IMG/VR virus record: IMGVR_UViG_3300032265_002746
DNA: 64,000 nt
Reading direction: 5' to 3' (one strand)
Origin: a virus
Taxonomy: Duplodnaviria; Heunggongvirae; Uroviricota; Caudoviricetes
Below the pieces are notes generated by a model, which was given only the letters and a program-made list of their open reading frames with translations, did not search any database and was not told the origin of the DNA. Below, piece after piece: positions 5,407-62,484 of this stretch (within the stretch, counting starts at the first letter, position 1; each line of letters begins with the position of its first letter). Made by a program: the position numbers and the translations under genes.

Positions 5407-6021
5407 CTATTTTTTATCTAATCTACAAGGGCAAAAGTTGCTATTAGCACAGATAATCCCATGTATTATATCGTCAATCTTACTGTATTTATTTGCAAGT
5501 ATGGTTGCACCTTCATTCAATGAAAGTGTAGAACCTTGAGTGGATTCAAAAGAAACTGCATCAAAACACAGCATCTCTAAATCATCCTGAACCATTATGG
5601 CCTCATTTGTTTCCATTACGCTTCCCTGAGCCCTAGAACTAATCCCAAAAGGGATTTTCTTCATAGCTAGTTCTCTAAGTATTTTGCCAGAAGGTGTGTC
5701 TAGTATCTCTACGTCTCCGTATACTTCGTCACCTTCCCAGTGCATCTCGGTAATTACATGTGATACATTTTTAAGTTCAACCACCATTTGACTACAATGG
5801 TCTAGCTCGCCTAGTGCTCTTCTGGTTTTTACGAATTCTTCGTTGTATTTTGATAATACACGCTCAAGTACAGTTCTTGGATAGATTCTTCCGTTTCTAT
5901 TTTTTGCATTAGCCCTTTGAAGCAATATATGCCTAAATACAATTGGAGCATTAGGTAAGGATGCAGCTTCGTTTAACTGGTAATCGCTAAGGGTGACTGG
6001 GAAATATTCGGTAAGTATCAT
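5407..6021 (-). CDS. Prohead core protease (T4 gp21-like, peptidase U9)
   Basis: NRNGRIYPRTVLERV..ALGELDH aligns with T4 gp21 NRNKRLYPKRILEKAV..ALGELNHP. Position next to scaffold and capsid genes agrees. Confidence 0.8.
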   Translation of the reverse strand: MILTEYFPVTLSDYQLNEAASLPNAPIVFRHILLQRANAKNRNGRIYPRTVLERVLSKYNEEFVKTRRALGELDHCSQMVVELKNVSHVITEMHWEGDEVYGDVEILDTPSGKILRELAMKKIPFGISSRAQGSVMETNEAIMVQDDLEMLCFDAVSFESTQGSTLSLNEGATILANKYSKIDDIIHGIICANSNFCPCRLDKK

Positions 6022-9000: not shown

Positions 9001-9440
9001 TCTTTATCTGTAGGGGCATGTTTACCCATTTCAATCTTAGTGTAGTAGATTGCATCCTTCTTCAAGTTAGCTATAGCTTTCTTTTGTGCAGCAAGAATAA
9101 CCTTATCATCGCTAAGGTCTTTTCCTTTTGCCTCATATCTCCATCCTTTTTCGTATTCAAAAGGATTGACTTGTTGAACCTGATGAGCAAAATCATCTGG
9201 TTTGTCTAAATCACTAATGGACTCTTTTAGAATTGACATGAAGTTGAATTCTTTTTCTTCACTTTTATTTACAGTTTCTGTAATGAACCCTCTGTTTTTG
9301 AATATACTTATCACTTCCTCATAAGAATTGAGGTGTGAAAACGTTTTGTTTACGCGTGTATCTTCTTTTGCTTCTTTCAAGAAATCTGCTTTTGAGAACT
9401 CTCCGGCTACTACTTGTCTGTATCTTGTATTGATATCCAT
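6021..9440 (-). CDS. Large K/E-rich virion protein, possible prohead-core or ejection protein
   Basis: 1139-aa ORF with low-complexity charged tracts, one hydrophobic segment (VAALLSSLGVLYFAA), and a location between portal and protease. ATGA overlap with the protease start. Confidence 0.6.
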   Translation of the reverse strand: MDINTRYRQVVAGEFSKADFLKEAKEDTRVNKTFSHLNSYEEVISIFKNRGFITETVNKSEEKEFNFMSILKESISDLDKPDDFAHQVQQVNPFEYEKGWRYEAKGKDLSDDKVILAAQKKAIANLKKDAIYYTKIEMGKHAPTDKEVESKKMIDISKGENYKDKNHQVKPVKPAKPEDTKEDSDRVKIEKLKTKLLEDFKKKNLSDNQLNEGAWSKLKSLSASLHKYKPKSKERKALEDKLNSISDQAVNDELDKLESALNKIDPEFPNGESIEKFNQGCEFIYDTYYSIKHAATLDSSEQGYMDPILANKLIDGIKLYVKTLKDSELASTYKAFNESLNENVAVTAADGFTQILQKMTGISLNQNQSVNNLKSAIEKVGGGNYEKGLEVTKKLFTNNGAGSVDQQADKLTDLISHGGKMGDVFAKSTGTFGNKGLFSVKLPPATTEKIANAVAKLAGNAATHVTQHGDTIKQAAHAVKHVVHHSAGQNAAAVAALLSSLGVLYFAAKGTFKFAKNNDSRYATLNDFYNLMKPAPETEEDSVSNEPERDQEDNEEGGSTEPTKSSDEIVLNLTGTKGEEEKEEEPEGTRELTKSSNTIELNPNITTPEEKPKEKEKSPADVPFIINNPTEFKDLPLKDKLEFVRTQAPKATDGMSDLEISKLADKRAKELLNRFNSSNTSKPIELSPKDTSKDFSELTLMQKLELGRKGVTERSWDELNSKEKLELARKGTPRVKSTEPVNTKNEPETNTKTGKKLTQAAGEEGGKGAKAKTEKEKSSKTPVKKSGEKVAAKQGELDFTGGEKEELIPYGKPARYVATTMKALAKPVESIIIPEEKNEEGNLIRNKIIIKVDPAVKLAYNKEIKKKDSLLASTINKLKDTAKANVKAFPVIINLENEGSIDNLVKKLKKIKITKGLKEQFVVEILKQRLLEDLYTPSLGMFVPYPQGRLVDKDDLERELRNNTPADNQNYTDHTSVYTNRIDSERLVKIDQLIRQMGQPGIDLYNKYAKALGCAPYDVRAQIFNPVQVPDDDRTYIDGDGNVEPVKRKTKEVFESEKPSFTPNQQNILETLNDIYKKCVPKTGITPFTEYLQNTYFNPGKKEHKIAVAFVKYKLSQPNCKHKEELQQALEDLKAKYRI

Positions 9441-10771: not shown

Positions 10772-13735
10772 TTAGTCTTTGTCTAACAAATTACCCTCGT
10801 CTAACATAGATAACTCTTTAGGCTCTCCTCCTTCAAACAGTTGGACTTTCTTTCCAGGTTTAATTTTTTCTAAGTCAGACTTCTTCAACCCTTCATTATA
10901 GATACCCTTTCTAGGATTAGGTCTTAGGCTGTCTTTCTTGTACTTATCTCGCATTTCTTTCTTCCCAAAAGGATCCCTTCCAGCAAAAGAACTGTCTGTG
11001 CCGTAAGAAGAAGCGTGTAATACCGGTCTGCCTATGACTTTTTTCTCATCATATCCATCTGGTACGCTTTCTGGGCCTGAAGCATTGTTTTTGTAAATAG
11101 ATGCTAGGTCATGTGGTGTTCCATAAGATACTCCGGATAAAGCTGGGTCATTACCTTCCTGCTCAATCTGAGTGTATCTGAATTTACGTTTAACATCTTC
11201 AGCTATAAGGTCACGCTCACGATTAATCTGGTCTTCACTCATCTGGAATATGTTATCATAAATCCAGTCTGTTGAGATAAAGTTCTTCTCTTGCATCTGA
11301 TTAGCTAAATCAACTTTTTCTTTCAATAAAGCAATACGTTCTTGCTCATGCAAGATAGAAGGGCGAGCAAGTGTTATGTCAAAATTGGCAAGGTCTGAAT
11401 CCTCATACCCTAATAAGGTAAGGTGTACCTGTGCTATTTTTTGTAGTTGAGATACAGTCAATCTTTGGATATACTCTATTTGGCGAGACCAACTCAAGCT
11501 TAATCCAGATAAGGTAGATTTACCATTTAACTCATCAGAATAGTTCAAATAAGCTTTTGGAATCTTTAAAGCAGAGAACATCTTATTGATGAAGTAATTC
11601 ATATCATCCATACCTGTATACTCCAATCCTTTAGCTGTATCAATTCTGGTTAGGTTGTCACCATTACGGACTGGAATATGGAAATCCTCCAATAGGTTCA
11701 TCATATTGAACTTATAGTTGAATTGTCCGGTTTTGTGGTCGAATAGGGGTGTACGCTTTTGATTGGAAATGTGCTTTTGCATCATGGCATCTACCTCATT
11801 TGGAGGAAGATTACCCACATTATAGTAGAACACCCTCTTTTCGGCAGACTTTGTAACACGATGGGTTACCGCAGCATCCTCCATCATGGTATATGCCTTG
11901 AATAATTTACGTCCAGGTTCAAGCCAGGAGTTATGTACTACTATCCCATTAGCAATAAAGTTGTGATTTTCAGACTCCACGTGTATGTCGTAGGTCAATT
12001 CTTTGTCAGACTCTTCTATGGCTGTAATAGGCTCTAAAATAACGTTTTCAATACCTTCTTGTTTATACTTCTTTGTTTGGATTAATTTCCTACCTTCCAT
12101 ATAAAAGCTCAAAAGGTAAGCTTCACTTTTATTATATATTTTATCTCCAAAAACAACAGTTGTCCTCTCTTTTCTTTTACGTATTTTGCCAGATTTTATT
12201 TTTAATCTTTGCAGTAATACTTTCAAATCCTCTAACATTTCTTTGTTAACAAGCTCAACTGTATACCTGTTACAGCCCCATTCATCTATATTGGTACTAC
12301 CGTCAGCATCTACTAATCCTTCTATAAATGCCAGTTGTACGTTTTCAGGCTGCTCATATATCCAAGATGGAAATCTCTTAGTTTTTGCTTTTCCTGTAAA
12401 TCCGTTATTTTTAAGGATAACATTAAGGGCTTTTGAATGACAGAAAGCTTGAGAGCTTATATTTGTATTTGTTATTTTTTTATTATGCTCACCACATATT
12501 TTTCCTGAATACTTTTGTAATATACCTTTGTACTTTTGATTGATGTCATCATGAACACCTTGTGCAAACGCAACGCAAGATTTAGATAACCACCCATCCC
12601 CTAGCATAAAGCCAAATAATCTTGCAAAGTCTTCTTCGTATGTATTTGGTATGTATTCCAATAACTTTTGCCAGCCATTTTTCTTATTTTCATTAGAAAC
12701 ATCTTTATTGATTTTGCTTTCAATATTAGGTTGTTTAAAAGAATAATTGGTAATAGCTACTAGGTCTTTTATGTTAAGTTCTTGTATCTGTTTGTATTTT
12801 AATACTCCGTCCGAAAATACAAGAATGGGGTGTTCTGCACTGCCTTCTATGAAGTTATTTTTAGTTGAAACTTTGTAGATTTCCTTTTCTCCAGAACACA
12901 CTTGCTTCAATACTTTAGTTAATTCATACTTATCTTCCTTGGTATTGTATGACCAAACCTTATCGCCTTCCTGTATTTTATCAATTGTATTTACTCCAAA
13001 TTCTGTCTCAACGTAGGAGTTACCTTTTAGACATCTGCCATATGGTAAAAAGTTACTATCTTTCATCAGCCTAAAATGTGCTATCTCATAGTTTTCATAA
13101 ATCCTATGATTACGGGATTGATTAATTGAGCTTACACCTCCCATGATTGCTCCTGGGTCTTGTATAAACCTGACATATTCCCCATTATTTGCATCTAAAC
13201 CCTCTTCTCTCACCATTTCATAAGGAGACAAGGATTTTACCCCATAAACTCCGAACTGATCTGAAAGACGTAACAAAAGGAAGAAATCTCCATATTTGCA
13301 AAAGGACCTTATCCACATCGGTAAATTGAATTCAACATTCAATACGTTGTAAAAAAGATTATACAATTCATCCTGGATGTTCTCAGAAGAAGACCTTATA
13401 GATAAGATTTCGTTATTCATTTCATTAACCTGTGTAGCTTCCTCACAAAGGATATCTAAGGCCGGTGCCACTAGGGCATCTAAGTCCATTGCTTCATAGT
13501 CTAGGTATAGTTGTGCCCTTGTTATCTGCATCCCATAGCCTATACCCGGTTCTATCAGGGAGCTATTGGAATATAATCTAGTATATCTATTTGCAAGCGT
13601 GTTTTGTTGTAAGTTTCCGAATGCTTGTATACCATTAAAATCGGATACTTTTAAGTATTTACCTCCTGCTCTTTTGATTATGGTGTCAGTAGTAAACTTC
13701 TGTTTTAATTGTGCAAATAGAGCTTTATTAGCCAT
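10772..13735 (-). CDS. Portal protein (T4 gp20-like) interrupted by an in-frame intein
   Basis: Exteins match gp20: MEDAAVTHRVTKSAEKRVFYYNVGNLPPNEVDAMMQKH parallels T4 [37 protein letters not shown], and RNGDNLTRIDTAKG parallels RDGKAVTEVDTLPG. 987 aa, of which about 368 aa are intein. Confidence 0.85.
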   Translation of the reverse strand: MANKALFAQLKQKFTTDTIIKRAGGKYLKVSDFNGIQAFGNLQQNTLANRYTRLYSNSSLIEPGIGYGMQITRAQLYLDYEAMDLDALVAPALDILCEEATQVNEMNNEILSIRSSSENIQDELYNLFYNVLNVEFNLPMWIRSFCKYGDFFLLLRLSDQFGVYGVKSLSPYEMVREEGLDANNGEYVRFIQDPGAIMGGVSSINQSRNHRIYENYEIAHFRLMKDSNFLPYGRCLKGNSYVETEFGVNTIDKIQEGDKVWSYNTKEDKYELTKVLKQVCSGEKEIYKVSTKNNFIEGSAEHPILVFSDGVLKYKQIQELNIKDLVAITNYSFKQPNIESKINKDVSNENKKNGWQKLLEYIPNTYEEDFARLFGFMLGDGWLSKSCVAFAQGVHDDINQKYKGILQKYSGKICGEHNKKITNTNISSQAFCHSKALNVILKNNGFTGKAKTKRFPSWIYEQPENVQLAFIEGLVDADGSTNIDEWGCNRYTVELVNKEMLEDLKVLLQRLKIKSGKIRKRKERTTVVFGDKIYNKSEAYLLSFYMEGRKLIQTKKYKQEGIENVILEPITAIEESDKELTYDIHVESENHNFIANGIVVHNSWLEPGRKLFKAYTMMEDAAVTHRVTKSAEKRVFYYNVGNLPPNEVDAMMQKHISNQKRTPLFDHKTGQFNYKFNMMNLLEDFHIPVRNGDNLTRIDTAKGLEYTGMDDMNYFINKMFSALKIPKAYLNYSDELNGKSTLSGLSLSWSRQIEYIQRLTVSQLQKIAQVHLTLLGYEDSDLANFDITLARPSILHEQERIALLKEKVDLANQMQEKNFISTDWIYDNIFQMSEDQINRERDLIAEDVKRKFRYTQIEQEGNDPALSGVSYGTPHDLASIYKNNASGPESVPDGYDEKKVIGRPVLHASSYGTDSSFAGRDPFGKKEMRDKYKKDSLRPNPRKGIYNEGLKKSDLEKIKPGKKVQLFEGGEPKELSMLDEGNLLDKD
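11930..13033 (-). mobile_element. Intein with LAGLIDADG homing-endonuclease domain inside the portal gene
   Basis: Starts with Cys in R|CLKGNSYVETEFG, has a block-B-like SAEH, two dodecapeptide motifs LFGFMLGDGWLS and AFIEGLVDADGS, and ends VVHN|S. Residues 235-602 of the ORF. Confidence 0.8.
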
Positions 13736-30880: not shown

Positions 30881-33800
30881 TTATTGTGGTAATAGGTTAT
30901 TGGTTAAGGGTTGAATAATATTTGAGACATTATTTTCTATTGCAGGGTCTAGATATTCAGGTATTAAAACTGCTGATGATACTACACCAAGTTGCTTTTG
31001 TGATTCAATTATTACAGATGTTTCATCTGGCATTAGTCTTATTATTGCAAATGCAGAACTAGTGTCGGATACTACTGGTGCTCTATCTAATGTGGCTTGT
31101 AATTTTCTAGTTACGGTACCACCTACTGTAATTGGTGCAAGAACGCTCTTTACTATATATACTGGGTCCAATACATTTTCTATGGGAGATATTCTAACTA
31201 AATCCCCTTGTTGTATTGTAAATATATCTTCTACTGGTGAGTAGCTTGCTGTTATATACGATGTGAGTGCTCCTGTATTATATTGTGGACTAAATATACT
31301 GTTATTGTATAAAAGAGATGATGTAACATCAAATATCAATGTGTCGTTATAACCTGTAGTATAGCTACTTGATATATAAAACATCGGTGCCCCTGATGCA
31401 ATGCTTTGTGTTACAACTTGTTTAGTTTGACCTCTTGAATCTATTACTTGGAAATAACCACCTTGTGGTATGGTGAAATTTATTTGATTACTTCCTTGAA
31501 AGAAAAGTGATAAATCTAAGAAAAATACCCTGAGTCTTAATTTTTCACCTTGCTGAAGGTGTATTGTCTGGTCTAATTTTTGATTAAAAGTTATATAATT
31601 GCCATTAAGATGATCCCAAATATATATGTTACCTGGATATCCATAAGCTCCATTATCTAGTCCAGAGTAGTCCCCTGAAGGTGCTACAGGTATATTCCAG
31701 TCTCCTAGACTCGTACTAGCTGCATATCCCCAGCTACCCCCAGCATACTTTTCCACTACCCCTATTACTTTAAATGTACCATTACCTCCATCAGGATGAT
31801 TACCTGTATATTGTATAGGGATATATGCAGATACATAATAATCTGATGTTTCTGGAGCAGTAAATACTAATCTGCCTGTTTGGTCATTTGTATCGTATGT
31901 CACGTAACTATTTAGTCCACTAGATATAAATCCTCCTGCAGAGCTAGTGTTTGGTAAATGAAAGTAGCTTAGTTCATAGTAACCCTTTAGATAATCTGTA
32001 CCTGTTGGTTGATATAAAGTTTGTTGATAGTAAGACTCATCATAACCTTTGTATAACCATGTTTGTGGTGTACCATAAGAAGTGTTTATCGTAGGGTACA
32101 TAGAATTAAAATCGGATAATGATCCATATACTTTAGATAATATACCATCTGTTACTTGTTGACCATTAACTATAAGTTGAACAGCATTGCTTGGGGGTTG
32201 TGGCTGTCTTATTGGTACGTACTGTAAGGCAAAAGATAGATTAGTGTCAGCTCCATTAATTGTATGCCAATTAACTGAATAATCCATTACTGCTTTAAAT
32301 CCAACAGATTCTGTATAAGTCTGTACTGGTTTAGTGAATGTAAATGAAAGAGGTTCATTGCTATCCCTGTACACTATAGGTTTAAAAGAATATCCTCCTA
32401 GATATATAGTAGAGGTTCCGTCTATAGAAAATTGATTAGAAGGGCTCAATGGGTTTGTGAGTGAAATAGTTATACTATCCCCTGACTTAAATGTGTTTTG
32501 GACCTCAAATAAATTTTTATTTGCCCGAGTCAATGTTGTAGTTGAACCAGATGCGTCCAAAAGATATTTTATACTAAAGGTTGTTTTATCTAAAAAATTA
32601 CAATTGTTTACACTACCTTGTAAAGAATACCCAAACTTACCCGAATAGGTGTTTATATTAGGAAACGTACCCGATCCTGTGTCTCCTTGTGTATACTTAT
32701 TAAGCTTTTGTACGCTAACCTTACTACCTATATATCTAGGAATACTCCACCTTTTATGATTATACTCACTATCCTGTAAGGCAACAGGTTGTAGTATATT
32801 TGGATTATTTATATCCTGCTTCTTAGATACAGTTGATAAACGGTTGGTATACACATCATTATTAGTTACGTTAAAATCGCTATTTTTGAAAATAGCAGTA
32901 CTAAAGCTTTGTGTATAAGATAGGTAGGGATTGTAATTACGAATCTCATAGTTATCATGTATATCTACATAAGATCCTGAAATATCCCCTGTCATAAAAG
33001 TCATCTCCTCATTGAATTGAGGGTATGATGTACCTGCTTTTATAGTATTATGTCCTACAGATGCGGTATACTGGACCAAGGACATGCTAGGCTGGTGCCT
33101 AGATATTTTGTTACGTTCAAGGATTGGTGACTTAATTGTTACGCCTGTGCTAAGGTTTGTTCTAGCAGGGGTAAAATCACCTATCATTTTGAATAGTGTA
33201 TTATCTATTTGCCCTACTAAATTTATAAAGTCTTTGTAATCATATTTAGATATAAACTTCTGGTAATATTGAGCATTTATTGTGACAATATCTGGATATA
33301 CATTTAAACCTTGATAAGTTGGGTCTCCTATATATTGGTCTAAATCAAGTAAGCTACCATATTGAGATATGATATCTTTGTTTATTTCATTCTGAGGGGA
33401 GAAACTTACTTCAGCAAAGTGGGTATCTCTTGACCTATTTGTATCAGGTGCTTCTATCCTTAAAATAGGACTTAATACATTACTATTAGGGGTGTTATTG
33501 ACTATACGAACTTTCTCTGTAACAGGGCTGTAATAGCCAGCTTGAGGAGTATTTGTGTAGGACAACTCATACTCTGATTGGTAGTTATTCTGATTGGGAA
33601 ATCCTATAAATAAAAGGCTATTGTATGATGAGCTGTATTGTAAGGATTGTGTTGGTAATCCTCCATAACTACTGGTACTGTAATGAGCATAAGTGCCGTA
33701 TAAGGATCCTCCTGATGCTGAATATACACTTCCTGATGTGTAGTATAATTTGAACTGTGGATGTACTGAGCCTACAGATGCAGTTTGATAGTGATTATAG

Positions 33801-36271
33801 GTCAACAAGTTGTTGCCTAAAGGGAATCTTGCTGCTAAATCGTTATAGGCACCATTTATATTATTTCCTTGAAAAGATTCATTACTTAACGTATGTGCAT
33901 CAAATGCTGTTGATGATAAAGGTTCAGACCAATATCTAAGCTCTTGTATTCCTCCTATAAATGATGAACTAAATAAAGGTGTTACTACACCTGGGCCTCC
34001 AACTGACAAATATACTAATGATGATGTATTACCGTAATAGCTCCACGCCCTATTCAGTGTAAGATCTGAAGCTAGTCTGTAATTTATATTATTGTAGTTA
34101 CCTATTGAAGTTTTAGCTGTATGACCTACTCTTCCTGATATACAATTTTGAACAGTTAGTGTATATTTTTGACTACCTGATATTGATGATATGTAATCTT
34201 TATACTTTGTATCTGTTGTCAGCAACACATTCCAAAATCCAGTATCTCCATCACTTCCTGTTGCATACATAGGAACAGAAAGGGAAGATGATACATACCC
34301 ACTTGACCCTGAGATAATCAAAGTAAAGTTGGCAGAAGGGACGCTTTGGGATACTATATAGTTTAATTCAACACCAAAGTTTACTTTCGAACTTCCGCTT
34401 TGGTACACTTCTATTAACGATACATTGGATGGTTTTGTATGTTTATCCGGCTTTATTCTAAATTCAATAGAATTTGGAACAAGGTCATTTACACCATATT
34501 TTAAGTAATTTTGGGTGAGTGGTGCCCAATAAGCTTTAACATAGCTTCCTGAAGCATTTGACAGAGAATAAGAGAATCTATCGTATACATAGTCAGGCTT
34601 AGTGGATGTGCTATCTGCTCCTCCATATTGTACAGGAGTTAAAATGGTATCAGGTATGCCATATACTGTTATTAAATTCTGGATACCTCTTGTGGTTCCT
34701 TTAGATTTAAGTAAGTAAGGTAAGTTATGATAAAGTCTTTTGTAAAGCTCCTTTGATTGGTCTTGACCGCTAGTTAGTATTCCTGAGCCAGTTACTGTGT
34801 AACTTCCTGTTGGTGCTCCTATAAGATACTCAGATAGGTTCAAATCAGAGTTGTTATTATAGAGCTTCATGCCGTATGACCTTAATACATCATAAACCAT
34901 ATCTTTTGAGATACCGGTATTCATATTGTTATCCGCCTTATGAATATCGTTTATGGCTTTGATATATACCCATATGCTATCGTAATGCTGACCAAGCATG
35001 TTTGTAAACAATAGGAATTGAGCATTCTTGGGGTCATCTACTATGAAACCAGGAGTACTGAATACCAAATTATCTTGATTCTCTAAATCATACAGAGATG
35101 CACTATATAATTGTCCGTAGGTCTGGTTATCACCTAAAAAGGCTTGTGCTTGTGGGGATGTAACGCTGTACAAAACACTACCACTTTTTGGCCATGCATA
35201 TGGTGATTGGTCATAATATAAGAACGACTCGTAAGGGTCAAAGTTCTTTATTATGTTATTTGTAGATGCTTGTATTGACTGTGCACTTCCACTAACAGAT
35301 ACATCCATTCCAGGTAATGATAATAACCTAGATACTGTAGATTCATTCTGTTGTATCTCAGTTAACTTGTAAACAAAGTTAACAAGTCTTTGAGCTGCAG
35401 ATGAAAAGTGTACAAAGTTTTTATAATCAGTGTAATCAACGTTAATTCCTATTGAATCATTATTAAGTTGATTAATTATTGCCTGATAGTCTTGTAATGT
35501 AGGCGTGTTAAATATTGTCGATTGGTTAACATAAGCCGATGCTAACCCTGATTGAGCATGCACATCTATGTCAAAATTAGCCGAAGCTATCATAGGTGTA
35601 GGTGCCGGGGTGAAGTCTGGTGTAAGCACCACTTCAAATACAATAGGGGAAGCTAGTTCTTCTACTATCCATAAAGGAGCCTTTAAACCGAATTCAGTAG
35701 GTAAAGGTTGATATAGCTTTATTAATAGGGAGTAAGGATTAGTACTCTCATCTATGGCAATATTGACAGCATTAACTGCATTGTTATTACCAAAGTTCAA
35801 TAAAAAGTCCTTGAAATATGGAGAAGACTGTACTTGGTTAATGAAGTTAAGGGTATTGGTCTCTAAGGTTAAATTAGATACAATATTTGAGGATAGGCGT
35901 ATTTCTGTTCGGTCAGTGCTTATCTCCGTTATGAAAAAGGTATACGAAGACAGATTGTATATCTGATGCCTGTATATCCTGTAATCAAGCTTAAAATCAC
36001 CTACATTATAATTCCTACTGGTTAGGTAAGTACCTGGGTCAAATAAAATCTGGTTACTGGTATTATATCCTGTATCTGGTAAAGTGTACTCTGTAACATT
36101 ATAGTTAGAATCTAAAAGAATATCATCCTGAGTGTAGACATGACATTCCACATAATCCGTAGTAGGATTGAAATTACGTAAGAAGCTCTGAGAAGGTATG
36201 AGTACTTGATCAATAGTATCATACTTATCTAAAGCTGGGTCTTTTATTTGGTTTATGGATACGACTGACAA
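30881..36271 (-). CDS. Giant fibre / baseplate-associated structural protein
   Basis: Uninterrupted 1796-aa ORF rich in S/T/N/Y/G, typical of fibre or adhesin composition. Lies in the tail module. Confidence 0.6.
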   Translation of the reverse strand: MSVVSINQIKDPALDKYDTIDQVLIPSQSFLRNFNPTTDYVECHVYTQDDILLDSNYNVTEYTLPDTGYNTSNQILFDPGTYLTSRNYNVGDFKLDYRIYRHQIYNLSSYTFFITEISTDRTEIRLSSNIVSNLTLETNTLNFINQVQSSPYFKDFLLNFGNNNAVNAVNIAIDESTNPYSLLIKLYQPLPTEFGLKAPLWIVEELASPIVFEVVLTPDFTPAPTPMIASANFDIDVHAQSGLASAYVNQSTIFNTPTLQDYQAIINQLNNDSIGINVDYTDYKNFVHFSSAAQRLVNFVYKLTEIQQNESTVSRLLSLPGMDVSVSGSAQSIQASTNNIIKNFDPYESFLYYDQSPYAWPKSGSVLYSVTSPQAQAFLGDNQTYGQLYSASLYDLENQDNLVFSTPGFIVDDPKNAQFLLFTNMLGQHYDSIWVYIKAINDIHKADNNMNTGISKDMVYDVLRSYGMKLYNNNSDLNLSEYLIGAPTGSYTVTGSGILTSGQDQSKELYKRLYHNLPYLLKSKGTTRGIQNLITVYGIPDTILTPVQYGGADSTSTKPDYVYDRFSYSLSNASGSYVKAYWAPLTQNYLKYGVNDLVPNSIEFRIKPDKHTKPSNVSLIEVYQSGSSKVNFGVELNYIVSQSVPSANFTLIISGSSGYVSSSLSVPMYATGSDGDTGFWNVLLTTDTKYKDYISSISGSQKYTLTVQNCISGRVGHTAKTSIGNYNNINYRLASDLTLNRAWSYYGNTSSLVYLSVGGPGVVTPLFSSSFIGGIQELRYWSEPLSSTAFDAHTLSNESFQGNNINGAYNDLAARFPLGNNLLTYNHYQTASVGSVHPQFKLYYTSGSVYSASGGSLYGTYAHYSTSSYGGLPTQSLQYSSSYNSLLFIGFPNQNNYQSEYELSYTNTPQAGYYSPVTEKVRIVNNTPNSNVLSPILRIEAPDTNRSRDTHFAEVSFSPQNEINKDIISQYGSLLDLDQYIGDPTYQGLNVYPDIVTINAQYYQKFISKYDYKDFINLVGQIDNTLFKMIGDFTPARTNLSTGVTIKSPILERNKISRHQPSMSLVQYTASVGHNTIKAGTSYPQFNEEMTFMTGDISGSYVDIHDNYEIRNYNPYLSYTQSFSTAIFKNSDFNVTNNDVYTNRLSTVSKKQDINNPNILQPVALQDSEYNHKRWSIPRYIGSKVSVQKLNKYTQGDTGSGTFPNINTYSGKFGYSLQGSVNNCNFLDKTTFSIKYLLDASGSTTTLTRANKNLFEVQNTFKSGDSITISLTNPLSPSNQFSIDGTSTIYLGGYSFKPIVYRDSNEPLSFTFTKPVQTYTESVGFKAVMDYSVNWHTINGADTNLSFALQYVPIRQPQPPSNAVQLIVNGQQVTDGILSKVYGSLSDFNSMYPTINTSYGTPQTWLYKGYDESYYQQTLYQPTGTDYLKGYYELSYFHLPNTSSAGGFISSGLNSYVTYDTNDQTGRLVFTAPETSDYYVSAYIPIQYTGNHPDGGNGTFKVIGVVEKYAGGSWGYAASTSLGDWNIPVAPSGDYSGLDNGAYGYPGNIYIWDHLNGNYITFNQKLDQTIHLQQGEKLRLRVFFLDLSLFFQGSNQINFTIPQGGYFQVIDSRGQTKQVVTQSIASGAPMFYISSSYTTGYNDTLIFDVTSSLLYNNSIFSPQYNTGALTSYITASYSPVEDIFTIQQGDLVRISPIENVLDPVYIVKSVLAPITVGGTVTRKLQATLDRAPVVSDTSSAFAIIRLMPDETSVIIESQKQLGVVSSAVLIPEYLDPAIENNVSNIIQPLTNNLLPQ

Positions 36272-49243: not shown

Positions 49244-49726
49244 ATGATAAAAAGAATCACCCACGAAGAGTCAAAGAATTACCGGCTGCTGAATCCTGAG
49301 AAGGATTTCAGATATAGTATGGATTGTGCAGTAGCCTTCACTCTAACAGAGACAGACCCACACCCTTGGGAGAATGTCACATATTTTGGAGAAAGTTTTA
49401 CAGATCCAACCAATTCAGTATTAAAACCCCAATGGGTGTATGTGATGGTGAACCCCTCAATCCCAAATACGGTTAAAGTGGGAGCAACCACAACTAGTGT
49501 CACACAACGTGCTAGGGAATTATCTTCACAGACTAGTAGTATCACACCTTGGTATCCTGTATATAGTCTGAAAGTTGGAAATGCATTCATGCTAGAGAAA
49601 GAAGTACACCAGTACTTAGAAGATCGCGGAACCCGTGTATCTCCGCGCAGAGAAGGGTTTGAGATAAGCTCTGAAAGAGCTATTGAAGTAATAAAAGAAT
49701 TAGGTCAGAAATATTTAACAAAATAG
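49244..49726 (+). CDS. T5orf172 (GIY-YIG-like) domain protein
   Basis: QWVYVMVNPSIPNTVKVGATTTSVTQRARELS matches the T5orf172 pattern (YVYVL..KIG.T..RR..EL). 160 aa. Confidence 0.55.
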   Translation: MIKRITHEESKNYRLLNPEKDFRYSMDCAVAFTLTETDPHPWENVTYFGESFTDPTNSVLKPQWVYVMVNPSIPNTVKVGATTTSVTQRARELSSQTSSITPWYPVYSLKVGNAFMLEKEVHQYLEDRGTRVSPRREGFEISSERAIEVIKELGQKYLTK

Positions 49727-50838: not shown

Positions 50839-51501
50839 ATGAAAAAGATGCTATTAACATTTGCAATGTGCATTTTTTGCACAATACTTTTTGCACAACA
50901 CACCATAACTGTAAAGCACAGTTATTACACCTTAGAATATGACACGTGTATTAAGTCACCTTTGATTAGTTGGTATATACAGACAACTGCTCATGAAAAG
51001 AGTACAAATAAGATAGACCGTAAGACAGTTGCATCTTTCCATCAAGACCCTTTAATTAACCCTAAGTATCAGGTAGCCACTGACAAGGAATACCTGAACA
51101 ATGGTAAATATGATAAAGGGCACCTGGCTCCATACAGTGCATTCTATTTCGACTTAACAGCTGCAAAGGAATCTATGTTGTATACAAACACAGCTCCGCA
51201 GTATTCCTTCTTTAATGAGCACCCTTATGAGCGTTTAGAGCAGCATATACTTAAAGAACTTGCCCCTGATTTTGACTCAATATATGTCTATACAGGATGT
51301 TTATATGGTAATGAAAAGATGAAGGATGTACCTGTACCAGATTATTACTGGAAGGTAATAAAATACAACGGAAAAATAGAAGGGTGGGTGTGTCCAAATG
51401 AGTTTACTAATAACTCAGACTATACAAGATACAAAAAAGACATTGTGTTTATCCGAGATTTGATTTTAAAATATTACCCTAAGTTAAATATACCTTTTTA
51501 A
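50839..51501 (+). CDS. Secreted DNA/RNA non-specific endonuclease (Serratia-nuclease / EndoG family)
   Basis: Signal peptide MKKMLLTFAMCIFCTILFAQ. Active-site block YDKGHLAP (the DRGH motif). Metal-binding NTAPQ. 220 aa. Confidence 0.7.
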   Translation: MKKMLLTFAMCIFCTILFAQHTITVKHSYYTLEYDTCIKSPLISWYIQTTAHEKSTNKIDRKTVASFHQDPLINPKYQVATDKEYLNNGKYDKGHLAPYSAFYFDLTAAKESMLYTNTAPQYSFFNEHPYERLEQHILKELAPDFDSIYVYTGCLYGNEKMKDVPVPDYYWKVIKYNGKIEGWVCPNEFTNNSDYTRYKKDIVFIRDLILKYYPKLNIPF

Positions 51502-51504
51502 TAA

Positions 51505-52137
51505 ATGAACAGACTAAGAGTACTTATTGGTTGTGAAGAATCACAAGAGATAGCAAAGGCATTCAGGGAACTAGGTCACGAAGCATACAGTAATGACTTA
51601 CAAGATTGCTCAGGTGGACACCCAGAATGGCATATTAAGGGTGATGTACTCGAAGTTATCAAGATAAACTGCTGGGATTTAGCTATATTCCACCCAGATT
51701 GCACTTATTTGACCTGTACAGCCAATAAATGGCTGAAAGACCAGCCTGAGCGTAAATCTGGTGTATTAGTAGGAGAACCTCGCAGAATAGCCCAAAAAGA
51801 GGCTATAGAGTTCTTTATGAAGCTATATAACTGCGATATTCCCCATATTGCAATAGAAAACTCCATAGGAGTGATGAGTAGTGCCTTCCGTAAGCCTAAT
51901 CAGATACTACAACCATGGCAATTTGGTCATGGGGAAGTTAAGGCTACCTGCCTATGGACTAGGAACCTACCCATACTAAGCCCTACGGATGTAGTATCAG
52001 GTAGGGTAGCTAGGTCACATAATGTACCACCTAGCCCAGAAAGGTCTAAAATAAGGTCTAAGACCTACCCAGGTATTGCGAAAGCAATAGCAAAGCAGTA
52101 TTCAGACTACGTAATAAAATATAAAAGATGCTTCTAG
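51505..52137 (+). CDS. Hypothetical protein with cytosine-C5-methyltransferase-like core motifs (speculative)
   Basis: WDLAIFHPDCTYLTCTA resembles MTase motif IV (PCQ..S.G). IAIENS resembles the ENV motif. No canonical FxGxGG. 210 aa. Confidence 0.45.
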   Translation: MNRLRVLIGCEESQEIAKAFRELGHEAYSNDLQDCSGGHPEWHIKGDVLEVIKINCWDLAIFHPDCTYLTCTANKWLKDQPERKSGVLVGEPRRIAQKEAIEFFMKLYNCDIPHIAIENSIGVMSSAFRKPNQILQPWQFGHGEVKATCLWTRNLPILSPTDVVSGRVARSHNVPPSPERSKIRSKTYPGIAKAIAKQYSDYVIKYKRCF

Positions 52138-52346
52138 AGTTAAAACTAAAGGTAGATGTAGGAGAAAACTTCATAAGTACCCCTCCAACCCAGGCAGAAC
52201 TGGACTGGTTATATTATGATTTCCTTAATCCCATAAACCTATCACTAGGGGATGAACCATACCCAGTCCTGGGAGTATCTGAAATAAAGTTAATAAATGA
52301 ACAAACCGGCCCTGAAATCCCTAAAATAACATTCTTTAGTGTATGA
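52128..52346 (+). CDS. Hypothetical small protein
   Basis: 72-aa ORF. Confidence 0.4.
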   Translation: MLLELKLKVDVGENFISTPPTQAELDWLYYDFLNPINLSLGDEPYPVLGVSEIKLINEQTGPEIPKITFFSV

Positions 52347-52588
52347 GACATCCATTAATAGCTTTGAGAGAACGACTAAGTAAGATAGGTATAGAAATAG
52401 GCATGTCATCTAATTACCCATGGGTATATTTAGACACTGTAAATGGTAACAGAGTAACTGAAATATACCAAAGTGATCATTACTTCACTATTGGGTTTAT
52501 GAGTATAAGAGATGAAAATGAGTTTAGGTTCACAAACCTAAAAGAAATATTTTTGGTAATCAGAAAATACCTATCTTTGCATAAATAA
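52343..52588 (+). CDS. Hypothetical small protein
   Basis: 81-aa ORF. Confidence 0.4.
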   Translation: MRHPLIALRERLSKIGIEIGMSSNYPWVYLDTVNGNRVTEIYQSDHYFTIGFMSIRDENEFRFTNLKEIFLVIRKYLSLHK

Positions 52589-52595
52589 AATAAAC

Positions 52596-53072
52596 ATGTA
52601 TACAAACAAAAACTACACGACTACCATCAGCTCTTACAAAGAGTTCGAAGAAGAATTAAATGAAGCAATTAACTCATTGAAACCAATGACAGAAAAAGAA
52701 GCAGACATGATAGAATATCTAGCTGACTACCTGGACTTATTCGACCTGCAAGGCGAAGAAGAAGAAGAGTTAGAATCAGAAGTAACAGCCCTGAAACAAA
52801 AGGTAACAGAGCTAGAGAACAGGCTTAAAAACCTAGAGGCACTCCATGAAGATGTAAAAGTAGAACCAGCTAAAAAAGCTGAAGTTGACTACTCCTTCTG
52901 TAACTTCATGGATAAAACACATCCAAGTAAGAATAGAAAAATTATCATAGGTACAAACATAGGTTCATCCACATATAGTGGAATGGCCGAAGTGAAAATA
53001 TCAGAAAGTGTAAACTACACCCAAGACTACATAGACGAGATGGTAAAAACTCAAAAATGGGTAAAATTATAG
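52596..53072 (+). CDS. Hypothetical coiled-coil protein
   Basis: 158-aa ORF with an acidic heptad region. Confidence 0.5.
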   Translation: MYTNKNYTTTISSYKEFEEELNEAINSLKPMTEKEADMIEYLADYLDLFDLQGEEEEELESEVTALKQKVTELENRLKNLEALHEDVKVEPAKKAEVDYSFCNFMDKTHPSKNRKIIIGTNIGSSTYSGMAEVKISESVNYTQDYIDEMVKTQKWVKL

Positions 53073-53314
53073 TAAACAAAAGGTATATTAATTCAATGTT
53101 AAAGAAATTAGCCAAGTCCTATCTGAGGACACTTGAAGTAATAGCAGTTTTATTTATACTACACAAGGTAGTAAGGGAAGCCTTTTCACTAATGAACGCA
53201 AGTAACGACATACTTAACTTCACAGGATTAGTGATACTTACCTTTGTATTTTTAAGTGGATATTACTACATTAAATGGTTTATTCAAAGAATAAATAAAA
53301 AGCAAAAATCATGA
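53057..53314 (+). CDS. Small membrane protein (two TM helices)
   Basis: LEVIAVLFILHKVV and GLVILTFVFLSGYYYI. 85 aa. Confidence 0.45.
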   Translation: MGKIIVNKRYINSMLKKLAKSYLRTLEVIAVLFILHKVVREAFSLMNASNDILNFTGLVILTFVFLSGYYYIKWFIQRINKKQKS

Positions 53315-53544
53315 TAATACTGATAATATACATAGTATTGGTAATAGTACATTTAGGGTGCTTCTTTGCATTTATGGACAGTAAAAAAGGTGATAGTAAA
53401 TACTGGGATGAGTACGGTAACACCTGGGAATTAGGTTATATGCTTTTAGCGGGTATAGGTTCCATACTCTGGCCTATCTTTCTGCCAGTGATATTACTAT
53501 TCAGGCTAGTACGTAAAAAATCAGAAAAATTTTTCAACAAATAG
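53311..53544 (+). CDS. Small membrane protein (two TM helices)
   Basis: IILIIYIVLVIVHLGCFFAF and LLAGIGSILWPIFLPVILLF. 77 aa. Confidence 0.45.
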   Translation: MIILIIYIVLVIVHLGCFFAFMDSKKGDSKYWDEYGNTWELGYMLLAGIGSILWPIFLPVILLFRLVRKKSEKFFNK

Positions 53545-53574
53545 TAATTAACAATTAAAAAAAAAACAAAAAAG

Positions 53575-54438
53575 ATGAAAAACATCGTAAGTTTTCTAGC
53601 ATTCATTATGCTAATGAGTAGTTTAACCAGTTGTATGACGAGAATATCTCCAACTGAAGTAGGATTTCGAATTGACAATGCCGGTGATTATAGAGGCATA
53701 GATAGTTTACCACTATTAACAGGTTGGCAGTTTTACATGCCAGGTGGTAGTTACATCGTAACGTTACCAACAACACAGGAACACGTAGTATGGACTGAAA
53801 GTGAAACAGAAGGTAGCCCAACTGATGAAGCAATCACAGTAGCATGTAGCGGAGGTGCCGGCTTTAAGATGGATGTAGGTGTTAACTATCAGATTATACC
53901 CAATAAAGCCTCTAAGCTATACCTGAAATATAAAACAGACAACCTAAAGACCATTACTAATGGGTTTCTAAGAAACACAGTAAGAAGAGCTATGCAGGAT
54001 GTATCCGGTACTATCACTGTAGATAGTATACTAATAAACCTACCGGCTTATGAGCATGCTGTAAATGACCTACTGAATAAACAATTAGAACCACAAGGTA
54101 TCACACTTATGTTCAGTGTACTAAAGCAACCTACACCTACAGACCCTAATCTGGCTAAGTCTATCGCTTCTAAGATACAAGCAAAGCAAGATGCTGAACG
54201 TGCTGTAACAGAACTACAAAGCAGTATAGCTGAAGCTAATAAGCGTATAGCAAAAGCAAGAGGTGACAGTGCATCAAGAGTGATTGAAGCCTTAGCAGAA
54301 GCTAAAGAAATCACAGTTAAACAAGAAGCATTACGTCAATCACCTCAATACATTGAGCTTGTAAAAGCACAACGCTGGAATGGAGTATTACCTACAGTAA
54401 CAGGTGGTGGATCAGGAATGATTCTCAACATCAAGTAA
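53575..54438 (+). CDS. SPFH/band-7 domain lipoprotein (HflK/C- or flotillin-like)
   Basis: Lipobox LTSC after a signal peptide. Central SPFH-like core. C-terminal QAKQDAERAVTELQSSIAEANKRIAKARGD..EALAEAKEI typical of the SPFH coiled-coil. 287 aa. Confidence 0.55.
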   Translation: MKNIVSFLAFIMLMSSLTSCMTRISPTEVGFRIDNAGDYRGIDSLPLLTGWQFYMPGGSYIVTLPTTQEHVVWTESETEGSPTDEAITVACSGGAGFKMDVGVNYQIIPNKASKLYLKYKTDNLKTITNGFLRNTVRRAMQDVSGTITVDSILINLPAYEHAVNDLLNKQLEPQGITLMFSVLKQPTPTDPNLAKSIASKIQAKQDAERAVTELQSSIAEANKRIAKARGDSASRVIEALAEAKEITVKQEALRQSPQYIELVKAQRWNGVLPTVTGGGSGMILNIK

Positions 54439-54530
54439 AATTTTCCAAAAATTTTTTCAAAGGGGAAATAGCCTTTCAAAGGTAAAATCCCCTTTGATAT
54501 TTTAACAATAAAAAAAGGGGGGTAGGGGAT

Positions 54531-54716
54531 ATGTACATAGACGAAAATCTATTCAATACTATAAGAGCCCAGGCTCTTGTAAAACTGAATAACAACAAAG
54601 ACAGACCTATGTCTGAAGCAACCATAGAGGCAGAAGCTATCCTAGATGTACTAAAGGCCCTAGAGGAAAGCTCCAGGCCTAACTATGATGAAGAAGATTT
54701 AATTAACAGAATATGA
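54531..54716 (+). CDS. Hypothetical small protein
   Basis: 61-aa ORF. Confidence 0.35.
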   Translation: MYIDENLFNTIRAQALVKLNNNKDRPMSEATIEAEAILDVLKALEESSRPNYDEEDLINRI

Positions 54717-54925
54717 AATACAGAATAAAAAGCTATGTAGGCTACGATGGTACTACCTATTACGTAGCAGAGTGTAAACCTAACTGGTGGAGTCTATGGA
54801 TGGAATCTATGTATCACTACAAAACAGAAGAAAAAGCACTAGACCACATAGAAACATGGAAGGAGAATGAAGCAAAAGAACTAGCTAGAAAAAATAGAAA
54901 GTACACTTATAAAGAAGTAAGCTAA
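54713..54925 (+). CDS. Hypothetical small protein
   Basis: 70-aa ORF. Confidence 0.4.
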   Translation: MKYRIKSYVGYDGTTYYVAECKPNWWSLWMESMYHYKTEEKALDHIETWKENEAKELARKNRKYTYKEVS

Positions 54926-55143
54926 TGAAAAACAGGGTATTATTGACACATCTAATGCTAAACAATTTACCACATACAGAAATGAATGTACAAAGTTGGT
55001 CAGTAGGGAGTATAAAGACTAGGAATTATAAACTGGGTGAATACGAAGTCCAGGTGATTGAGTACGAAGGAATGCAAGAAATAAAAGACTATGACCTATA
55101 CATAAACGGTAAGTTTTTTAAAGGTGAGGATACCCCGAATTAA
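54925..55143 (+). CDS. Hypothetical small protein
   Basis: 72-aa ORF. Confidence 0.4.
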   Translation: MKNRVLLTHLMLNNLPHTEMNVQSWSVGSIKTRNYKLGEYEVQVIEYEGMQEIKDYDLYINGKFFKGEDTPN

Positions 55144-55185
55144 CAAGAGGTTAAATAGGCTAGTCAGGGGTGAAGGAGTTTAACA

Positions 55186-55213
55186 GGGGGACATAGTTGT
55201 CCCTTTGTTGTTT
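55186..55213 (+). terminator. Intrinsic terminator
   Basis: GGGACA-tagt-TGTCCC followed by TTTGTTGTTT. Confidence 0.55.
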
Positions 55214-55505
55214 AGTATAGTGAAGTGAGGGTATCTTGGCCGGTAGTTAGGGTAGAAGGGTTTAACCTTAGGTCCAGGGGGAAGGGCAGCCAGAGCAGAT
55301 CTTAGGGTTATTTTATATAATTATATATTTATATATTTTTTTAGATTTGGGGGATTTGGGGTGGGGTTAGAGAGGCAATCTGCTGGATTCCTCCAGCGAA
55401 ATTTTTTCGCTAGTTACGAAAAATCCAGGTTTTTTACGAAAAAAATAAAACGAAAACGATTGAAATTTACGATATTGGAAAAAAGCAAAAAAAAAGTTTG
55501 TCTAG

Positions 55506-55513
55506 TAACTTTG
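55506..55513 (+). promoter_or_regulatory. TAACTTTG, matching a Bacteroidetes-type -7 element (TAnnTTTG)
   Basis: Lies about 140 nt upstream of the 55651 gene in a structured leader. Confidence 0.25.
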
Positions 55514-55650
55514 CAACCCCTATCTTCGCCATGCCATACCATTACCCACTAAAAACACCCTTAAGGGGTGACGGGTAAAGTATTGCCCATACTTTTACAA
55601 TTAAAGTATGGTATTAATTAAAAGGCTATAATAGCCGCAAATTAAAAGTT

Positions 55651-56331
55651 ATGAATGAAGTAAAGAATGTAGTAAAAGAAGTAAGTAAAGAAGCTACAAA
55701 ACAAGTAAAAGAAGTGGTTAGTATTGAAACACTACTTAGTCGCTACCCTATCATTGAGACTGAAACCATAGAAAGGGAAACAGGTTTAAAGGTAGATGGG
55801 TTCGAGGGCTACAACTTAGTAAAAGAAGTGGTTAAAAGTAAAGTTACTAATATAGAAGGAAACAAGCTAGTAACCACTGAAACAGAAACGCAAACGGGGT
55901 TACTACTTAGAAAAGAAGGGGTTGAACCTATTAAGTTTGTAGGGGGCAATGATTATTTTTTGGACACTTCAACCAATACTTTTAAGAAGTATATTAATGT
56001 AGGGGGCAAGATTAGCGAAGCACTGACAGAAGGGGCGAAAAGTAAAGATGTAACAATTGCCAAAAAGGAAACTAAAGGCGAAATAAAGGGCGAGATATAT
56101 AGCCCTTCTTATTGCTTCAAAATAGCCCTTCGCAAAATGAAACAAAACGGCAAATTTGCGAAGCTATTTAGAAAGGGCGAAACATTAGACACTTTACAAT
56201 TGCCTACTATTTTACCCTATATAAATGCTGCACGTCGGGAAAGGTTTAACGGGGGCGAAACGGCTATTTTCACGCCTATTGCTTTTGTTGATTTTATTAC
56301 TAAGTATTTAAGTGACACGACTAACAAGTAG
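55651..56331 (+). CDS. Hypothetical K/E-rich protein whose 3' half carries GGGGCGAA-type repeats
   Basis: 226-aa ORF. The repeats encode GGK / GAK / KGEI / KGET / GGET. Confidence 0.45.
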   Translation: MNEVKNVVKEVSKEATKQVKEVVSIETLLSRYPIIETETIERETGLKVDGFEGYNLVKEVVKSKVTNIEGNKLVTTETETQTGLLLRKEGVEPIKFVGGNDYFLDTSTNTFKKYINVGGKISEALTEGAKSKDVTIAKKETKGEIKGEIYSPSYCFKIALRKMKQNGKFAKLFRKGETLDTLQLPTILPYINAARRERFNGGETAIFTPIAFVDFITKYLSDTTNK

Positions 56332-62112: not shown

Positions 62113-62484
62113 ATGATACATAGATTTTACAAAGACAACGAAGGTTGGTTTATTGATTTGCCTGAGTTCTTAGAACTAGGTTTAGGTACTAAAGGTAACC
62201 TAGCAATGGTAGCAGGTGCAGATAAGCTACTAGACGAGCTATCAGGTAACAGTGACGAAGTAACCTTACAGTTCTATGATGAACCGTTTGATGGTTTTGA
62301 ACACCATATGATAATGGATGATATGGGCATGGATGAAGATGTGCTTGAAGGATATGGACACCCGATAGAGATAGGCGGGTACTATCATAGAGAGTCTGAT
62401 GGCTTTAAGATATGGTTATGTCCAGTTACTAAGTATGTGTTTGGTGGATATTACCCTGATAATATATACCTTAGAGTAGTTTAG
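62113..62484 (+). CDS. Hypothetical acidic protein
   Basis: 123-aa ORF. Confidence 0.5.
   Translation: MIHRFYKDNEGWFIDLPEFLELGLGTKGNLAMVAGADKLLDELSGNSDEVTLQFYDEPFDGFEHHMIMDDMGMDEDVLEGYGHPIEIGGYYHRESDGFKIWLCPVTKYVFGGYYPDNIYLRVV

Follow-up and report, generated by a model that had tools for sequence, protein, structure and literature searches.

The tailed phage represented by the IMG/VR record IMGVR_UViG_3300032265_002746 (Duplodnaviria; Heunggongvirae; Uroviricota; Caudoviricetes) encodes an SPFH-domain lipoprotein together with a small membrane hairpin, and these two genes constitute a conserved, translationally coupled cassette into which a third small gene (ORF77) has been inserted in the lineage of this phage. 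The window, meaning the whole stretch of 64,000 nucleotides that was analysed, has a G+C content of about 35.5%, and the cassette lies in a plus-strand arm that begins at ~46.9 kb and consists mainly of small genes without assigned function. Domain identities, a fold, conserved linkage, tight gene junctions, and topology signals all emerge from the analysis. The best overall explanation, to which a probability of roughly 0.45 is assigned, is that the lipoprotein would build an SPFH cage at the periplasmic side of the inner membrane, around the hairpin or anchored by it, and that the pair serves in envelope protection or superinfection exclusion. The features of the locus are as follows.

53096..53314, + strand: hairpin partner gene (family A), 72 amino acids (aa) from Met14; the longest open reading frame (ORF), from 53057, gives 85 aa
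53311..53544, + strand: accessory protein with two transmembrane (TM) segments (family B, ORF77), 77 aa
53545..53574, + strand: A-rich spacer of 30 nt between the family B stop codon and the SPFH start codon, read from the sequence
53575..54438, + strand: SPFH/Band_7 lipoprotein, PHROG_200, 287 aa, identified with Pfam, PHROG, AlphaFold2 (AF2), and Foldseek
54476..54497, + strand: weak candidate from a consensus scan only, a terminator-like hairpin followed by a T-rich run, ~40 nt 3' of the SPFH stop codon

The three plus-strand ORFs pointed out in a first-pass annotation of the sequence, at 53057-53314 (85 aa, here ORF85), 53311-53544 (77 aa), and 53575-54438 (287 aa), are present with that strand and those limits. 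The start codon of ORF77 shares bases with the stop codon of ORF85 in an ATGA overlap, and the terminator-like structure at 54476-54497 possibly ends the transcription unit.

The 287-aa protein begins with the segment MKNIVSFLAFIMLMSSLTSC, in which residues 1-20 (53575-53634) comprise a signal peptide and lipobox. The lipobox L-T-S-C, already recognized at first pass, fits the consensus [LVI][ASTVI][GAS]C, and in 24 homologues with 58-89% identity (alignment A1) Cys20 hardly ever varies. The signal peptide is the sole hydrophobic segment of the protein (Kyte-Doolittle), and on these sequence signals the protein is predicted to be exported and lipid-anchored at Cys20. Lineages without the lipobox Cys (DSS3P8, B13, and Amboise) have an N-terminal signal-anchor in its place, and all E. 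coli versions examined have Cys-Asp at the lipobox, with Asp at position +2, a residue established in E. coli as the Lol-avoidance signal that keeps lipoproteins in the inner membrane. The SPFH-like core proposed at first pass is borne out by Pfam Band_7 (PF01145), which matches residues 23-214 with 77.6 bits compared with a gathering score of 23.6 (E = 1.6e-21), and the PHROG_200 'lipoprotein' profile matches residues 1-282 (E = 4.7e-51). The SPFH domains span approximately residues 21-182 and are followed by long helices within residues 191-255 and a conserved C-terminal tail, RWNGVLPTVTGGGSGMILNIK. The AF2 model (predicted local distance difference test score, pLDDT, 70) contains a beta-rich domain, an alpha/beta domain, and helices at residues 191-230 and 233-255, to which the A/E/K-rich C-terminal coiled coil described in the first-pass annotation corresponds; the tail is disordered in the model yet conserved. 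In Foldseek the alignment covers ~290 columns for prohibitin, HflK/C, erlin, stomatin, and QmcA (E 6e-11 to 1e-8, probability 1.00) and likewise, at probability 1.00, for flotillin; a family profile searched against solved structures matches prohibitin 1 and 2 at 3e-4. As modelled, the protein has the full-length cage-type SPFH architecture (SPFH1, SPFH2, long helices, and C-terminal segment). Relative to its counterpart in the nearest relative, the SPFH gene has a dN/dS of 0.064 at a dS of 1.33. A unimolecular spanin was considered as an identity for the lipoprotein and rejected, given that there is no C-terminal TM helix and that homologues also occur in Gram-positive phages.

The hairpin partner is probably shorter than its longest reading frame implies. 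While ORF85 is real, as claimed at first pass, translation probably starts at Met14 (53096), giving 72 aa rather than 85, because the source annotation (P0128) has 72 aa, family members align at that position, and the 16-nt overlap of the longest form with the upstream ORF is thereby removed. The protein consists of a first TM helix, a conserved turn (FSLMNASNDILNFTG), a second TM helix, and a Lys-rich tail, which is the layout of family A as a whole (TM helix, F-x-L-M-N-x-x-S-T-x-x-N-x-x-G, TM helix, Lys-rich tail; members of 60-87 aa). The two TM helices claimed for each small protein are supported by two Kyte-Doolittle hydrophobic segments in both ORF85 and ORF77 and, for family A, by an AF2 hairpin (helix 2-33, turn 34-37, helix 38-71; pLDDT 88) in which the turn N34-N37, the core of the motif, lies at the helix-turn-helix apex. 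Positive charges average 3.4 in the N-terminal tail, 0.6 in the loop, and 3.3 in the C-terminal tail; because they are found in the tails and not in the loop, the protein is predicted to be N-in/C-in, which puts the turn on the periplasmic side. A family A profile built without ORF85 finds ORF85 at E = 1.4e-9, and family members left out of profile building score between 2e-21 and 1e-9.

Searches of ORF85 against Pfam (E up to 1), PHROGs (E up to 0.1), and NCBIfam return no match, and typical family A members likewise match nothing in Pfam or PHROGs (four members compared with PHROGs, E up to 0.1). A remote relationship is nevertheless detectable at the profile level. When family A (alignment A2) is compared by hhalign with the hairpins of seven cultured phages (alignment A5), of which 4/7 match PHROG_1130 directly, the probability is 96.2% (E = 2.6e-9) and the motifs are in register, compared with 1.0% and 1.4% for control comparisons of the same-sized two-TM family B with A2 or A5. 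ORF85 itself does not match the PHROG_1130 profile (E up to 0.1), being too divergent for anything but a profile-profile link. On this comparison, the shared turn motif, and the shared place upstream of PHROG_200, the ORF85 family is a remote homologue of the PHROG_1130 hairpins. PHROG_1130, a 'membrane protein', is filed under 'moron, auxiliary metabolic gene and host takeover'.

The linkage between hairpin and lipoprotein is conserved across a wide range of phages. Amongst the 27 non-redundant metagenomic loci with enough upstream DNA (including the non-training loci L007, L013, L017, L047, and L050), 26 have a family A gene upstream of, and on the same strand as, the SPFH gene. Thirteen cultured phages were drawn from the PHROG_200 list; each has a small gene whose end meets or overlaps the start codon of the SPFH gene, and in seven of them (P88, Stx2a-EH1910, Paxi, Klebsiella Iguana, Burkholderia E253, Roseobacter DSS3P8, and Prevotella Lak-B8) there is a two-TM hairpin that has a comparable turn, (P)-x-L-[MILV]-[SN]-x-x-[SD]-[ST]...G, which in Iguana lies one gene further upstream. 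Five others (Kayvirus with MbpV, B13, Amboise, PaP4, and the phiCbK-like Magneto) have small TM partners of other families. The 38 gene junctions comprise 14 overlaps and 16 gaps of 0-3 nt, with a median gap of 1 nt. The two partners diverge at very different rates, as mean pairwise identity is 65% for the SPFH proteins compared with 26% for the hairpins; SPFH pairs that are at least 80% identical have hairpins averaging 43%, and between the window and its nearest relative the values are 89% and 30%, respectively. The turn motif is the sole conserved part of the hairpin, as would be expected if the helices need merely be hydrophobic and the turn is a functional contact. Annotation pipelines sometimes miss the hairpin gene, since it is unannotated in two public records (L051, ~930-1146, E. 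coli plasmid pCRECTL20-3, NZ_CP191571.1, RefSeq; L038, ~1310-1500, Stx2a phage EH1910, LC567834.1). The neighbours of the cassette in sampled relatives include AAA ATPases, tRNAs, dUTPase, RecA, and xis/int, the last adjoining it in lambdoid E. coli prophages.

Both small ORFs are kept in relatives (family A at 26 of the 27 loci, family B in 73 homologous clusters). Because an SPFH fold was found and the small ORFs are conserved, the first-pass proposal survives both of the refutations that it named. The two small proteins are not equivalent, however; ORF85 is the ancient, near-universal partner, and ORF77 is a lineage-specific accessory rather than a core part. ORF77 has conserved residues Y31, D33, G36, W54, and P59 (alignment A3), and searches found only sub-threshold, unrelated matches in Pfam and none in PHROGs or NCBIfam; typical family B members match nothing there either. 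Family B lies between hairpin and SPFH gene in a single subclade (the window, L005, L007-L012, L047, and L050) and occurs without an SPFH gene in L048 and L049; around P0330, the member on the most contigs (60), none lies within 2.5 kb. A third two-TM family (~91 aa), carried by the two closest relatives directly 3' of the SPFH gene (L004 3918-4196; L005 3867-4142), is absent from the window.

The SPFH gene itself is not unusual for a phage and belongs to an already known, widely annotated family. A tblastn search finds the SPFH protein in 692 of 50,697 GenBank phage records, with 669 matches covering at least 80% of the query, and the carriers include Staphylococcus Kayvirus (MbpS), phages of Pseudomonas, Klebsiella, Erwinia, Burkholderia, Caulobacter, and Bacillus, Stx2 phages, and the Prevotella Lak megaphages. 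Both virulent and temperate phages carry the PHROG_200 gene, and its records are routinely labelled 'lipoprotein' or 'SPFH'. The first-pass remark that this is not a standard phage module therefore fails for the SPFH lipoprotein, a standard PHROG_200 gene in 692 records, and holds for its conserved pairing with the hairpin, of which the searched open-access literature gives no description. The close subfamily (55-92% identity) is essentially phage-borne, with 27 IMG/VR contigs compared with three Bacteroidetes metagenome-assembled genome (MAG) contigs amongst ~185,000 species genomes; recent capture of a host gene by the phage was rejected because only these three MAG contigs matched. The exact SPFH protein of the window has no entry in the contig index. 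Of 5,426 complete E. coli genomes, 714 (13%) carry a P88-type SPFH gene, on chromosomes and on plasmids of ~95-125 kb, the latter accounting for about half of the 806 matching places. The examined E. coli plasmids carry tRNAs, dnaB, or recA, which suggests that the plasmid carriers are phage-plasmids. In most E. coli matches the DNA similarity to the P88 type ends before the hairpin gene, and all three cases examined (prophages or plasmids) have a hairpin that has diverged but keeps the turn motif. The cassette also occurs on the JGI contig Ga0485806_000001 (L002; 635,887 bp) and in Prevotella phage Lak-B8 (L044; 551 kb); the near absence of Pfam-annotated genes around the cassette suggests that the 635-kb contig is a megaphage as well.

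Comparison with known systems places the window cassette closest to the phages that combine PHROG_200 with PHROG_1130 (P88, Stx2a prophages, Paxi, Iguana, and DSS3P8). These share the lipoprotein family (25-31% identity over the full length), the conserved C-terminal (K/R)W(N/D)GxLP tail, and an upstream two-TM hairpin with the same turn motif in overlapping or abutting frames, and they differ in that the window has an extra family B gene between the pair and a host phylum of Bacteroidota. The resemblance to NfeD-SPFH operons suggested at first pass is a fair analogy in its operon logic, as E. coli QmcA-YbbJ, B. subtilis YuaF-FloT, and Pyrococcus PH1510-PH1511 co-transcribe an SPFH gene and the gene of a small membrane partner (PMC2636767). 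The fold of the window protein matches that of QmcA in the solved QmcA-YbbJ structure (8z5g; 5e-9). The small proteins are not NfeD, however; there is no match to PF01957, and products of 72-77 aa that form two helices leave no room for the NfeD OB-fold, the partner of 72 aa being two helices only. For QmcA, stomatin, and flotillin the orientation is cytoplasmic and the anchor is a TM or hairpin segment, whereas the window protein is predicted to be a periplasm-facing lipoprotein. HflK/HflC-FtsH shares the periplasm-facing architecture of SPFH1, SPFH2, coiled coil, and C-terminal segment (Foldseek 7vhq, 7wi3, and 9cz2; E 2e-10 to 1e-8) and differs in having a tandem K/C pair with N-terminal TM anchors, compared with one lipid-anchored gene in the window. 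An HflK/C identity did not hold up on this ground or on that of the NCBIfam equivalogs for HflK/HflC, for which the window protein falls far below the cut-offs (TIGR01933 hflK, 21.1 compared with 159.4 bits; no hflC match at the cut-off).

Amongst phages, the pair that has been noted in print is Kayvirus MbpV-MbpS, with speculation only as to its purpose (PMC7150955). MbpS belongs with the PHROG_200 homologues (26% identity, 97% query coverage), and MbpV is a small membrane protein encoded before it whose stop codon overlaps the MbpS start codon. MbpV differs from the window hairpin in its length of 102 aa, its one TM segment plus charged coil, its family (PHROG_3667), its place in a lysis module, and its Gram-positive host. 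In the literature searched, the only prophage-encoded SPFH protein with experimental data is the HflK/C-like PM0222 of Pasteurella multocida, which has been studied as a virulence factor in outer-membrane vesicle release and TLR1/2 activation and not for any role in phage biology (PMC9872710). The 2009 survey that sorted prokaryotic SPFH families and their NfeD operons into classes has no mention of phages or of lipoproteins (PMC2636767), and according to a 2026 paper the reason why phages carry SPFH proteins 'remains unclear' (PMC13239085). Searches of open-access full text found no functional study of phage SPFH proteins and no description of a conserved hairpin-SPFH cassette, an absence that is not proof. 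The cassette is a variation on the known SPFH operons, having a non-NfeD small membrane partner and a predicted lipid-anchored, periplasm-facing scaffold.

In the proposed mechanism, the lipoprotein would be exported, lipid-modified at Cys20, and kept on the periplasmic face of the cytoplasmic membrane, where, like other full-length SPFH proteins, it may oligomerise by way of its long helices and its conserved tail, so that a ring or dome of subunits closes off a patch of membrane. The hairpin, with both ends in the cytoplasm, would offer its polar turn L-M-N-x-x-S-T at the periplasmic membrane surface and could there touch the membrane-proximal SPFH domain; a contact through the turn is suggested because the turn alone is conserved, stands at the apex of the AF2 model, and is placed in the periplasm by the distribution of charges. 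The hairpin may be either the TM anchor that the lipid-anchored SPFH protein is without or a client inside the cage. Made early, from the host-takeover arm, the cassette would harden or re-organise the inner membrane of the infected cell against outside interference, the most likely effect being a block on the entry of superinfecting phage genomes or on membrane-damaging events, and not a part in the lysis machinery. Envelope protection or superinfection exclusion is favoured as the most likely role, at a modest probability, because of the early or host-takeover context, the xis/int neighbours, and the carriage by both virulent and temperate phages. A bolder form of the proposal, which is possible but doubtful, is that the hairpin and SPFH protein form an ancient phage-specific nanocompartment, a lipid-anchored cage raised around a dedicated hairpin subunit at the outward side of the cytoplasmic membrane with no NfeD or protease partner, acting as a general envelope exclusion or anti-defence device in phages of at least three bacterial phyla, with megaphages, E. 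coli prophages, and phage-plasmids among the carriers.

Several observations weigh against a protective cage of this kind. The confidence of the SPFH model is only moderate (pLDDT 70), and oligomerisation is attributed to the protein by analogy with the behaviour of its family. An inner-membrane location in a Bacteroidota host would be an extrapolation from the E. coli relatives, because sorting rules for Bacteroidota lipoproteins are not established, and the putative Pasteurella prophage homologue has been reported in outer-membrane vesicles (PMC9872710). The pairing also has exceptions. L032, the remaining locus of the 27, has another small TM protein in the hairpin position; in the nearest relative (L001/L004) two genes separate hairpin and SPFH gene; the Gram-positive phages (Kayvirus, B13, and Amboise) have single-TM partners of other families; and Erwinia phage Coenus has a soluble protein of 69 aa upstream of the SPFH gene. 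The PADLOC defence models give no meaningful match to the cassette (PDC-M14B on the SPFH protein, E = 0.012), and on the upstream ORF they give coiled-coil noise only. Additionally, Kayvirus mbpS and mbpV directly follow the endolysin gene lysK, within the lysis module (PMC7150955).

That last placement favours a lysis-timing device, in which the hairpin and ORF77 would be holin- or antiholin-like pore formers that the SPFH cage corrals or releases to set the moment of lysis. The Kayvirus authors write that MbpV 'resembles holins' and also describe a separate Kayvirus holin, HolA (PMC7150955). The hairpin has features of class II holins (~70 aa, two TM segments, N-in/C-in, Lys-rich C-terminal tail), and ORF85 and ORF77 both have the matching size and shape (small, two TM helices, charged C-terminal tail), all of which are generic. 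A strictly conserved polar turn in the periplasm is not a known feature of holins. Pfam and PHROG searches found no lysis genes amongst the neighbours of the cassette in the window, and no endolysin or other lysis gene adjoins it in the sampled relatives; a class II holin identity for ORF85 or ORF77 was rejected for want of any such linkage, except in Kayvirus, where the partner belongs to a different, single-TM family, PHROG_3667. On balance lysis timing is an unlikely function. Somewhat less probable still is a mimic of HflK/C, whereby the phage SPFH cage would engage or displace the host FtsH-HflK/C and so change the degradation of membrane or regulatory proteins (e.g., regulators of lysis versus lysogeny). 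The control of lambda CII by FtsH-HflK/C is established, the periplasmic orientation and the fold are shared, HflK and HflC are the only NCBIfam matches of the window protein, and source annotations read 'HflC-like regulator of protease activity'. These matches are far under the cut-off (HflK 21 bits compared with 159), and co-assembly with the host proteins is improbable because the fold matches have only 12-16% identity. The SPFH protein has no TM helix at its N-terminus. Strictly virulent phages, which make no lysogeny decision, commonly carry the cassette (N4-like Paxi, Kayvirus, PaP4, and phiCbK-like phages), and the conserved hairpin would be left without a role.

It is also conceivable that there is no complex at all, the SPFH gene and its small membrane neighbours being unconnected accessory genes that happen to be carried together in a densely packed arm. 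Small TM ORFs abound in the early arms of phages, and this arm is strongly mosaic, with only two genes common to the window and its nearest relative over 8.8 kb. Family B is found without SPFH, and in L004 (1895-2935) the hairpin is set off from the SPFH gene by a 346-aa AAA ATPase (PHROG_2376, 1.7e-57) and a 126-aa ORF. The homologue of this 126-aa ORF sits 8 kb off in the window (62113-62484, 65% identity), and the placement of the two genes in L004 thereby shows the arm to be mosaic. The pairing persists despite this mosaicism, in overlapping or abutting frames and in 26 of the 27 relatives, and it spans phages of Bacteroidota and of Alpha-, Beta-, and Gammaproteobacteria; mere co-travel is accordingly considered very improbable.

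The surroundings of the cassette contain further features. The minus strand of the window encodes a portal, a major head protein, a baseplate protein, and a primase. The portal ORF (10772-13735, minus strand) is unusually long at 987 aa, with portal homology confined to residues 529-858, and two large minus-strand ORFs (30881-36271, 1796 aa; 6021-9440, 1139 aa) have no PHROG match. In the plus-strand arm that holds the cassette, 49244-49726 encodes a T5orf172/MUG113 domain protein (6.4e-15), and 50839-51501 a 220-aa DNA/RNA non-specific endonuclease (PF01223, 4.6e-31) whose N-terminus, MKKMLLTFAMCIFCTILFAQ, resembles a signal peptide, so that a secreted nuclease seems to be among the products of the phage. 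The plus-strand gene after it, 51505-52137, matches PHROG_757 'DNA methyltransferase' (1e-57) and has no Pfam match. Downstream of the cassette, a non-coding gap of ~500 nt (55144-55650) is densely set with terminator-like hairpins, one of them with a 13-bp stem (55181-55210), and has no Rfam match; over 52000-55800 there are 10 terminator-like sites compared with 2.6 expected. A sigma-70 promoter scan, which does not include a Bacteroidota promoter consensus, found nine sites compared with 12.4 expected, and an Rfam scan of the whole window matched no family. Megablast of the region against GenBank phages gave no match, which indicates that the phage has no close cultured relative.

The instance in the window is an ordinary member of a widespread cassette, one that is ancient and readily testable. 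SPFH proteins such as prohibitin, stomatin, flotillin, and HflK/C are now known to build membrane cages, and their phage counterpart has its own co-translated hairpin partner in phages ranging from those of Bacteroidota to E. coli prophages, so that two well-defined components can be examined together in a tractable host. Should the pair prove to be a phage-specific nanocompartment, it would add a new class to the SPFH systems and a new mechanism to the conflicts of phages with one another or with their hosts. An ability to exclude other phages or to shield the membrane would link the cassette to prophage-mediated immunity, to the wider question of how SPFH cages choose the content that they enclose, and, because Kayvirus and Felix-O1-like therapeutic phages carry homologues, to the host range of phages used in therapy.

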